Shown piece by piece: positions 54,544 through 55,778 of a stretch of DNA of 64,000 bases. A program made the translations under genes and the position numbers. The stretch is from an uncultured archaeon (GTDB lineage Archaea; Asgardarchaeota; Lokiarchaeia; Sigyniarchaeales; SOKP01): contig CAZBNW010000004.1 of assembly GCA_964493385.1 (NCBI GenBank), positions 566 to 64,565 of the forward strand, read 5' to 3'. The stretch's first letter is position 1. Every line of letters begins with the position of its first letter. The notes under the pieces are model-generated. The model saw nothing but the letters and a program-made list of their open reading frames with translations. It ran no database searches and was not told the origin of the DNA.

Positions 54544-55778
54544 ATGGCAAAAATAAATCCAGAAATTTTAGAAGAACAATTAAATGTGTTAAAAGCGGAT
54601 GGAATCCCTGAAGATTTAATTGATAGAATTAGAGAAAAAGTAATACATGAGGATTTAGAAGAGGAACAACTCGAATATTTATTAAACAAAATCTTTATTA
54701 ATTTTAATAATGCTCTTGTAGAAACTTCTGAACCTGTAGGCACAGTTGCGGCACAATCAATTGGTGAACCTGGGACACAGATGACACTCCGCACTTTCCA
54801 TTATGCGGGCGTAGAGGGAGACAGATAACTGTCTTCTGCGTAAAAGAGTTTTCTGTCACCCAAGGTTTACCCAGATTAATAGAAATCGTAGATGCTCGTA
54901 GATTTCCTTCAACACCACAAATGGAAATACATCTCGAACATCCTTATAATGAGAGCGAAGAGAAAGCAATCGAAGTTCATAATCGTATCGAACAAATACG
55001 TATCGAACAAATAACTCATGATGTTGATTTAGATTTTGTGAATTGGAATATTGTAATAAATATAATTCCTGAAATATGCGAAAAAAAAGGGATCGATATT
55101 AATGAGATTCCAGAAATTTTAAAACGATACAAGAAAAAAGGGACGATAAGACGTGAAGGAAATTCAATTATCATCGATCCGGGAATAGAAGATCTACAAA
55201 ATTTGCAAAAACTAAGAGAAAAGGTCCTGAAAAAGGTTGTAAAAGGAATAAGAGGAGTTAAAAGAGGATTATTGACTCCCTCAGATGATAATAACGAATG
55301 GATAATTAAAACCGAAGGTACTAATATGCAAAGTGTAATCCAGATAGAGGGAGTAGATGTAACAAGAACCGTTTCAAACCATATTCACGAAATTGAAAAA
55401 TTATATGGTATTGAAGCAGCGCGTCAAATGATAATAAAGGAATCTCAAAAAGTCCTTGAACAACAAGGATTAGATGTAGACTTAAGACATCTACTAATTT
55501 TAGCAGATTTAATGTGTTATTCTGGCTCAATTCAGTCTATTGGAAGACATGGAATTTCAGGCTCAAAATCGAGTGTCTTCGCTCGAGCTGCTTTTGAAGT
55601 AACAGTCAATCAATTGCTTGATGCGGGGCTTTATGGAGAGGAAGAACGTTTGCTAGGGATCCCTGAGAACGTAATTGTGGGTCAAATTAGCCCAATTGGC
55701 TCAGGGAGGGTTTCAATAATGTTTGATCTTGATGCTAACTTAGATTTATTAAAAAAGAAGAAAAAAAGACGTAGATAA
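54544..55778 (+). CDS. rpoA2: DNA-directed RNA polymerase subunit A'', interrupted by a 29-nt insert (54815..54843)
   Basis: [22 protein letters not shown] ends at 54813. [18 protein letters not shown] continues from 54846 in another frame and runs into listed ORF 54921..55778. Joining 54544..54814 with 54844..55778 gives 1206 nt, or 401 aa. Confidence 0.9.
54815..54843 (+). other. 29-nt intervening element in rpoA2: candidate BHB-type mini-intron or translational bypass gap
   Basis: 9-bp hairpin 54816..24/54829..37 (loop AUAA), 4-bp helix 54809..12/54838..41, bulges AGA 54813..15 and AAA 54842..44, and GCGTA direct repeats at 54809..13 and 54838..42. Confidence 0.5.

Follow-up and report, generated by a model that had tools for sequence, protein, structure and literature searches.

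A probable mini-intron in the trigger-loop codons of the RNA polymerase A'' gene of a Lokiarchaeia archaeon

The essential rpoA2 gene of an uncultured Lokiarchaeia archaeon, which encodes subunit A'' of RNA polymerase (RNAP), is interrupted by 29 nucleotides (nt) whose features suggest a small intron that is removed from the mRNA by the enzymes of tRNA splicing. The gene lies in a 64,000-nt stretch of contig CAZBNW010000004.1 (hereafter the window, with position 1 as its first letter). An earlier note on this DNA, written from its letters alone, had read the insert as a relaxed bulge-helix-bulge (BHB) intron. We find that the insert is real and homologous to inserts in other lineages, that its structure is conserved across these lineages, and that it sits within a recombinant tract; exact restoration of the protein is possible under a single cutting rule. 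Probably the rpoA2 mRNA carries a BHB intron of the relaxed (HBh') kind that EndA cuts out before RtcB joins the exons; the action of these enzymes and the exact cut sites are inferred from sequence.

A 29-nt insert in rpoA2

The rpoA2 frame opens at 54544 and reaches the Val codon GTA at 54811-13, after which it continues with GAG GGA GAC AGA and stops at TAA 54826-28, so that the encoded protein ends ...HYAGVEGDR. The remainder of the protein is encoded in a different frame, from 54843/54846 to 55778. Open reading frame (ORF) calling on this interrupted gene gives fragments of 94 and 285 aa, and the joined product is a match to Pfam RNA_pol_Rpb1_5 (E = 1.8e-53). The insert site is the tip of the trigger loop of A'', the mobile catalytic element of RNAP. 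From translation and alignment with the intact relative L001, we assign putative exon 1 to 54544..54814 (plus strand; MAKINPE...TFHYAGV and the G of a Glu codon); putative exon 2 covers 54844..55778 (plus strand; AA GAG TTT... to the stop codon), and its translation has 96% aa identity to the intact homologue P0001. The earlier note had the gene stopping at 54826 and resuming in another frame at 54846. We found all of its coordinates again, including those that it gave for a GCGTA repeat, a 9-bp stem, a 4-bp helix and the unpaired AGA and AAA.

The DNA alignment with L001, the closest intact relative (96% aa identity), contains a single gap of exactly 29 nt, in keeping with the note, which had called for 29 nt, or 29 plus a multiple of 3, to be skipped. 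Removal of the candidate intron, AGGGAGACAGAUAACUGUCUUCUGCGUAA (54815..54843, plus strand), gives GTA GAA GAG, or V-E-E. Deletions of 29 nt that start at 54815, 54816, 54817 or 54818 all yield this V-E-E protein; a start at 54816 leaves the same mRNA as a start at 54815, while starts at 54817 and 54818 leave GAG instead of GAA. More than 100 homologues at 85-96% identity are uninterrupted and mostly 398-401 aa long (range 397-417), and FHYAGVEEFSVTQG is present without internal insertion in 120 of the 120 nearest homologues listed. Exactly two residues separate HYAGV from x-[NS]-V-T in each of the 120 close homologues, and likewise in all intact archaeal sequences that were read.

The same insert, 100% identical, occurs in L003 (from ENA), in L004 and L005 (Logan assemblies of separate runs) and in L019; besides the window, at least five other assemblies of the same species carry it, including one from a separate JGI project. 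L019, the one additional strain that came out of a protein-fragment hunt for further interrupted alleles, belongs to another JGI project and is 99.0% identical to the window over 3.9 kb, with 10 differences within rpoA2 and an identical insert. The truncated 94-aa product is also encoded on L003, L004, L005 and L019. Because the insert is identical in independent assemblies and projects, an assembly artefact as its source is excluded.

The 5-nt direct repeat GCGTA (54809-13 and 54838-42) that flanks the palindromic insert might be taken as the sign of such an artefact, of assembly or of sequencing, or of a tiny transposon with GCGTA as its target-site duplication. Considered together, these origins have next to no probability: besides the identity across assemblies, the repeat is not conserved in the homologous inserts described below, neither the window, nor 121 kb of related loci, nor the GTDB representatives yielded another copy, and deleting one repeat unit gives V-K-E, not V-E-E. 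We also considered a templated inverted duplication, given that 54818-35 resembles the reverse complement of 54844-60 (~12/15); no resemblance of this kind is seen in the inserts of three other lineages (L006-L008). Nor is a split protein likely, since the downstream frame has no start codon before 54921 and the conserved segment would be lost.

The insert and the exon bases next to it can be drawn as a compact structure on the plus strand. Helix H pairs GCGU at 54809..54812, exon bases comprising the last two of Gly GGC and the GU of Val GUA, with GCGU at 54838..54841, the last paired bases of the putative intron. The 5' bulge, AGA (54813..54815), would hold the 5' splice site at 54814/54815. 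Folding then predicts the inner hairpin h' (54816..54837), with a 9-bp stem (54816-24 with 54829-37, including two G-U pairs) and an AUAA loop that contains the in-frame UAA at 54826-28. The AAA at 54842..54844 has no closing outer helix and is unpaired in all predictions; the 3' splice site would lie within it, at 54843/54844. For the 37-nt element the fold energy is -15.3 kcal/mol (z = -4.9), a value that none of 200 shuffles equalled; the fold of its 66-nt context is unexceptional (z = -1.4).

Homologous inserts and the cutting rule

The note had proposed comparing rpoA2 among relatives. Using a degenerate search pattern that matches only rpoA2 genes with at least three extra bases between HYAGV and VTQGLP, we found three further metagenome contigs, L006, L007 and L008; an insert is thus present at the same site in three other, divergent Loki-like lineages and absent in intact relatives. 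These inserts are 31, 31 and 32 nt long, respectively, none a multiple of 3. Their borders are conserved (GTAG|A...GCRYAA|AAGAG), and both the AGA of the 5' bulge and the AAAA at the 3' splice region are invariant across the four lineages. The hairpins differ in sequence and loop length and keep their pairing: 92% of cells in the four-lineage alignment are paired, compared with 29-56% in slid controls, and six pairs are altered on both sides, five of them among the 9 pairs of the hairpin. At most 5 of 500 shuffles attain any of the observed measures, and the fold z per element ranges from -3.7 to -4.9 across the four lineages.

Helix H, one strand of which is exon sequence, is paired in 16 of 16 cells, with one change from C-G to U-A and one from G-U to G-C; its forms are GCGU/GCGU in the window, GCGU/GCGC in L006 and L008, and GUGU/GCAC in L007. 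It covaries with a synonymous exon position (GGC/GCG to GGU/GCA). The third position of this Gly codon is C or T in all intron-plus alleles and A, G, T and G in intron-minus alleles, which also use GTT as well as GTA for Val. Both exons are intact and highly conserved in all intron-plus lineages. Neither a pseudogene nor a random insertion would be expected to give this covariation pattern, which in these alignments reveals selection on an RNA structure of which exon bases are a part.

This bears on the proposal that the insert inactivates the gene, leaving a pseudogene or deleterious allele in a slowly dying sediment population, with the function supplied by another copy or by none. The rpoA2 reading frame is indeed broken, a second gene in the window (47448-48934, minus strand) is frameshifted in an A8 run, and the related contig L015 has a frame-breaking 70-nt deletion in its trigger loop. 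We nevertheless consider inactivation very unlikely, given that an insert has been retained at one and the same site in four divergent lineages, together with compensatory structure and strongly conserved, intact exons, that rpoA2 sits in a normal rpoA1-rpoA2-L30e-NusA operon, and that an intron-free version of the strain was not found in our protein collection, which includes the same sequencing runs (best match 96%). The same collection holds no protein identical to the predicted spliced product, the best match again being 96%.

At position 37/38 of pre-tRNAs, the two cuts that release an intron each lie 2 nt 3' of one strand of a 4-bp helix. Cutting 2 nt 3' of each strand of helix H excises 29, 31, 31 and 32 nt in the four lineages, and yields GTA GAA GAG, or V-E-E-F-S, in all four. 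We propose that in the rpoA2 transcript the exon GCGU (54809-12) would pair with the intron GCGU (54838-41) as a 4-bp central helix H, with AGA (54813-15) bulging from the 5' strand, the 9-bp hairpin closing the intron and AAA (54842-44) remaining single-stranded. EndA would cut 2 nt 3' of each H strand, as it does at pre-tRNA 37/38, and RtcB would ligate the exons to give ...GUA G|AA GAG UUU..., that is HYAGV-E-EFSVTQ in a normal A'' of 401 aa; unspliced mRNA would give only the 94-aa fragment. Asgard archaea have been reported to possess an (alpha-beta)2 EndA of broad specificity, with an L1 loop linked to the cleavage of relaxed motifs (PMC5829648). The note's assignment of a relaxed BHB mini-intron to 54815..54843 is supported by the homologous inserts, by the compensatory changes and by the one rule that gives V-E-E-F-S in 4/4 lineages; these comparative tests might have gone against it and did not.

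Several observations weigh against this assignment. The GTDB species representatives hold no example of the insert in scans with exact and degenerate patterns, and the covariation comes from four lineages only. An outer exon-exon helix h cannot be drawn in any lineage, so the motif departs from the canonical hBHBh' form, in which H is flanked by two 3-nt bulges on opposite strands between an outer and an inner helix, and would fit only the relaxed HBh' class. Moreover, RNAalifold prefers a slipped register, which is also the minimum-energy fold of the window, L006 and L007; here AGA pairs with UYU (UCU at 54835-37 in the window) and the bulge moves 3 nt further inward. Compared with this fold, the canonical register costs 0.2-0.6 kcal/mol in two lineages and 3.5 kcal/mol in L007, and is 0.6 kcal/mol better in one (slipped/canonical: -15.3/-14.7, -10.7/-10.5, -12.1/-12.7 and -11.2/-7.7 kcal/mol). 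Cuts placed on the slipped register are in frame too, adding 1 or 2 residues, so frame alone cannot fix the junction.

EndA might accordingly act on the slipped register, removing ~23 or 26 nt in the window and lengthening the trigger loop by 1 or 2 residues (V-E-E-E-F or V-E-V-K-E-F). In its favour, RNAalifold and three of the four minimum-energy folds give a 7-bp lower helix, a 3- or 4-nt bulge and a 6-bp upper helix, the gain in stability reaches 3.5 kcal/mol in L007, and the offsets are multiples of 3, which keeps the frame in 4/4 lineages. We think this unlikely, however: the second cut would either hit paired bases or lack the 4-bp spacing, a misfit to EndA geometry, and the products would vary between lineages (x = V, T, T or A) and would lengthen a trigger loop whose two-residue spacing is invariant. 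Because the spacing from HYAGV to x-[NS]-V-T does not vary, exact restoration of V-E-E is favoured. The note had warned of a second register, and rightly, since it is the minimum-energy fold; its prediction of an out-of-frame excision of 27 nt did not hold, as 23 or 26 nt would be removed, in frame.

Two translational explanations can be set beside splicing of the mRNA. The first is programmed ribosomal frameshifting, by which ribosomes would read through the insert and lengthen the trigger-loop tip by ~10 residues. In the window the downstream frame stays open as far back as 54786, and ribosomes that shifted by -1 ahead of 54826 would thus connect the two parts. The shift would have to differ between lineages, however, being -1 for the inserts of 29 and 32 nt and +1 for those of 31 nt; there is no slippery heptamer and no X XXY YYZ motif, and the frames of L008 leave only ~4 nt for a shift. 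In addition, the translated inserts would be mutually unrelated, whereas the RNA structure is conserved. Frameshifting is therefore a highly improbable explanation.

The second is translational bypassing of the kind seen in phage T4 gene 60 and in yeast mitochondrial byp elements, with take-off before the hairpin and landing after it, either from GUA to GUA or from a Glu codon GAR to GAG. The note had offered a hop between matching GUA codons as its alternative, and in the window GUA 54811-13 does match GUA 54840-42, and the gap that separates them contains a hairpin and a stop codon. This hop fails: neither the landing GUA nor the GCGTA repeat is found outside the window lineage, the corresponding sequence being GCGCAA or GCACAA in L006, L007 and L008. 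A Glu-to-Glu hop is formally possible in four lineages, all of which have a Glu codon after GUA and GAG before UUY, but it deletes a conserved residue. More generally, no stop stands directly 3' of any candidate take-off codon, the L007 insert at this site has no in-frame stop at all, and the products of bypassing would be V-K-E-F or V-E-F rather than the invariant V-E-E-F. Bypassing also leaves the covarying helix H unexplained, since its bases would occupy the ribosomal E site and the mRNA channel at take-off, and we found no other such element in the 121 kb examined. In light of these points, we give bypassing very little credence.

Further evidence that bears on the splicing model comes from L007 (contig Ga0114946_10162618), where rpoA2 contains a second, unrelated insert of 32 nt, ATATCTAACGCTTTTTCGCGTTAATAGTGGAA (~125-156, minus strand). 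It lies 30 nt upstream of the first insert, between the CAA that ends GEPGTQ and the ATG that begins MTLRTF. Its minimum-energy fold starts with a 3-bp helix and an A-G mismatch, followed by an AAA bulge, by a hairpin that stacks directly on the 3' strand and by a final AAA; cut according to the same rule, the transcript would regain CAA|ATG, or Q|M. As modelled, this second insert is independent support for the cutting rule, and it shows that mini-inserts are not confined to one site.

Distribution, apparent movement and neighbouring elements

The intron-plus genes do not form a clade. The nearest relatives of the window rpoA2 are intron-minus (P0001 at 95.8% and P0002 at 93.8%), as are those of L008 (P0106, 94.5%), and the nearest relative of L006 is P0116, at 85.6%; the intron-plus genes are only 80-88% identical to one another. 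Intron-plus and intron-minus alleles occur together in a single metagenome in two cases, L008 with L009 in Ga0114923 and L019 with L013 in Ga0115863.

Comparison of these alleles reveals an anomaly around the insert. Between L008 and L009, which are 91% identical overall, 16 of the 20 differences in codons -34..+25 lie in codons -14..+5. Similarly, the window and L001 are 87% identical overall and 75% around the intron, and for the window and L008 the relation is reversed, with 79% overall and 85-90% around the intron; these two share the unusual codons CTC CGC ... GCG GGC GTA. A quartet test locates an exon tract of ~60 nt with conflicting phylogeny, or co-conversion tract, at 54766..54857 (plus strand). 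Outside the tract, 126 sites support the grouping (window, L001 / L008, L009) and 4 of 137 group the intron-plus alleles; inside it, from -45 to +18 nt, 8 of the 9 informative sites group the intron-plus alleles (Fisher p = 1e-9). This is most simply explained by gene conversion that carried the intron from one lineage to another along with ~60 nt of exon. Whether this was gain or loss would be indicated solely by the atypical GC-rich codons of the shared tract.

Other elements lie close to the same site. Two related A'' proteins, P0125 (613 aa) and P0137 (914 aa), contain inteins with a LAGLIDADG endonuclease, positioned after about residue 82, within or just after GEPGTQ(M). This position coincides with that of the second L007 insert or lies within a codon of it, and the window insert follows 10 codons downstream. 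Selfish elements typically occupy such conserved sites, and we speculate that breaks induced by the endonuclease help the mini-introns to spread. A broader view would have mobile, ORF-less BHB mini-introns in Asgard protein-coding genes, aimed at the trigger-loop codons that are most conserved and spreading from species to species by conversion of a homing-like kind that takes exon tracts along, perhaps by way of intein LAGLIDADG breaks; we put this forward tentatively and regard it as rather doubtful.

Several contigs show other irregularities in or near this region. L018 (contig Ga0209427_10040301) has its first base at the Q|M site, 2 nt ahead of the ATG that opens MTLRTF, and the C-terminal fragments P0272 and P0279 also begin at the Met of MTLRTF; these starts may reflect assembly breaks caused by an insert polymorphism, or coincidence. 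As a candidate interrupted allele, L018 was rejected because the break is a contig edge. We also rejected L014, a chimeric low-coverage contig; L017 (1062-1160), where a scaffold gap of Ns mimics an interrupted rpoA2; and L016 (495-580), a tandem duplication of the GEPGTQ...HYAGV segment in a distant archaeal rpoA2 (~51% aa identity). L015 (contig Ga0451374_14096), a Loki-like rpoA2, was set aside on account of its 70-nt deletion, which breaks the frame and takes out the whole trigger loop (700-720), so that GEPG runs straight into the sequence beyond it; either the allele is defective or the contig is misassembled, again within this hot spot. In front of the gene, L006 (contig Ga0315284_10027181) has ~650 nt of unassigned AT-rich sequence between rpoA1 and rpoA2 (~4741-5488, minus strand), preceded by a short ORF that duplicates the start of rpoA2 (MAKVTPKILD...). 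The arrangement resembles an insertion that has duplicated its target where rpoA2 begins.

Known systems and other features of the window

The closest precedent is the cbf5 pre-mRNA intron of Crenarchaeota, reportedly described by Watanabe in 2002 and Yoshinari in 2006. The cbf5 introns are 16-44 bp long, have relaxed motifs, interrupt a catalytic codon, and have been gained and lost among relatives (Yokobori 2009, PMC2738675). The rpoA2 insert resembles them in its putative relaxed BHB, in the interruption of the most conserved catalytic motif, in a patchy presence with gain and loss, in a host from a group with a reported hetero-oligomeric, broad-specificity EndA, and in that gene callers take the intron for a frameshift. 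In contrast, the cbf5 gene encodes a pseudouridine synthase and belongs to Crenarchaeota, and here the site is the trigger loop of RNAP A'' in an Asgard (Lokiarchaeia) archaeon, with splicing predicted from the DNA. The rpoA2 case also differs in its direct sequence evidence of a co-converted exon tract and in having, in one lineage, a second mini-intron 30 nt away.

Non-canonical tRNA introns (of HBh' or BHL type) in TACK and Asgard archaea, including the transposing ones of Thermoproteales, have the 4-bp helix, 3-nt bulge, closing hairpin and cuts 2 nt 3' of each helix strand that are proposed for the rpoA2 insert, and the presumed enzymes are the same. Their sizes, 11-175 nt, are on a similar scale (PMC2738675). 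Unlike in tRNAs, the host RNA here is an mRNA, the codons of exon 1 supply one strand of H, and there is neither a tRNA context nor an outer helix. The second archaeal mRNA to be compared is that of HVO_1309 in Haloferax volcanii, which EndA cuts at a BHB motif and which is reported to be spliced (PMC7714728; PMC10485636). Like the rpoA2 transcript on the present reading, it is an archaeal mRNA that serves as an EndA substrate; it differs in having a canonical BHB and an alpha2-type enzyme, in gene and phylum, and in that the motif is not within an essential catalytic one.

More distant systems share single traits. HAC1/XBP1 splicing, by IRE1 and RtcB, also involves an mRNA intron on the scale of 26 nt, a protein endonuclease with an RtcB-type ligase, and a change of frame; IRE1, however, recognises two 7-nt loops rather than a BHB, and that system is regulatory. 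T4 gene 60 and the byp elements of Magnusiomyces similarly have a short hairpin gap with a stop in an essential ORF, and the window has matching codons at the ends of the gap as they do, but the matching codons in rpoA2 are not conserved, no stop abuts the take-off, and the product would be off the invariant motif. The inteins of RNAP A'' (GEPGTQM/T site) are selfish insertions in the same conserved trigger-loop segment; they differ in being protein-splicing elements of ~500 aa with their own homing endonuclease, whereas the mini-intron encodes nothing.

The note had given cbf5 as essentially the sole known case of a BHB intron in archaeal protein-coding mRNA. This is right for cbf5, the only example that reviews up to 2025 cite (PMC12397907), but HVO_1309 must be added (PMC7714728, PMC10485636); a 2023 review includes the latter and expects further cases (PMC10485636). 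EndA-dependent splicing of archaeal mRNA has so far been a matter of these two genes, cbf5 in some Crenarchaeota and HVO_1309 in Haloferax, and in the literature that we searched neither an mRNA intron from Asgard archaea nor one in rpoA2 is described. Most likely, then, rpoA2 is the third archaeal gene known with an EndA-type mRNA intron and the first in Asgard archaea. If the reading is true, an mRNA intron interrupts the codons of the catalytic RNAP trigger loop in Asgard archaea, the prokaryotes most closely related to eukaryotes; the making of a catalytic RNAP subunit depends on tRNA-splicing enzymes; and mRNA introns spliced by proteins are no crenarchaeal oddity. The polymorphism among close relatives, together with the recombinant tract, offers a rare view of the gain and loss of an ORF-less intron and bears on debates about intron origins. 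On the practical side, annotation pipelines split or discard rpoA2, which affects completeness estimates and marker-gene phylogenies of metagenome-assembled Asgard genomes.

We looked for other elements of this kind. A covariance model (R1) run on the window and nine loci found the rpoA2 site and otherwise weak matches only. The two best of these extra matches (L008 2147-2185 and window 31083-31120) lie in uninterrupted ORFs, and the weaker ones have E values of 0.5-4. Scans of the window for tRNAs and Rfam families gave no matches. A stop-to-stop frame-switch scan of the window found no interrupted genes beyond rpoA2 and a Succ_CoA_lig-family paralogue with an A8 run; its remaining candidates are ordinary gene boundaries or antisense frames.

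The window has a G+C content of ~29%, and the closest relatives of its RNA polymerase genes are in Promethearchaeota/Lokiarchaeia (Asgard) metagenome-assembled genomes. The rpoA1 gene for RNAP subunit A' (51416..54337, plus strand, from the ORF list) adjoins rpoA2 on its upstream side in one operon and is intact, with 973 aa and Pfam Rpb1 domains 1-5. Between the two genes lies a 46-aa ORF (54372-54512, plus strand) that echoes a C-terminal motif of rpoA1 (EETGKNAVHCGKITKGFQEWKKQK vs EETGKKAIWRGKETKAYLEWKEEK). Strains L003 and L019 have it too; the closest relative, L001, lacks it, and there rpoA2 begins 30 nt after rpoA1.

The Succ_CoA_lig-family paralogue (47448-48934, minus strand) is split into ORFs of 250 and 210 aa by a frameshift in the A8 run at 48205-48212. 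It contains no hairpin insert, and an intact gene of the same family lies at 49102-50580. The frameshift could reflect a decaying duplicate, a homopolymer error or programmed slippage.

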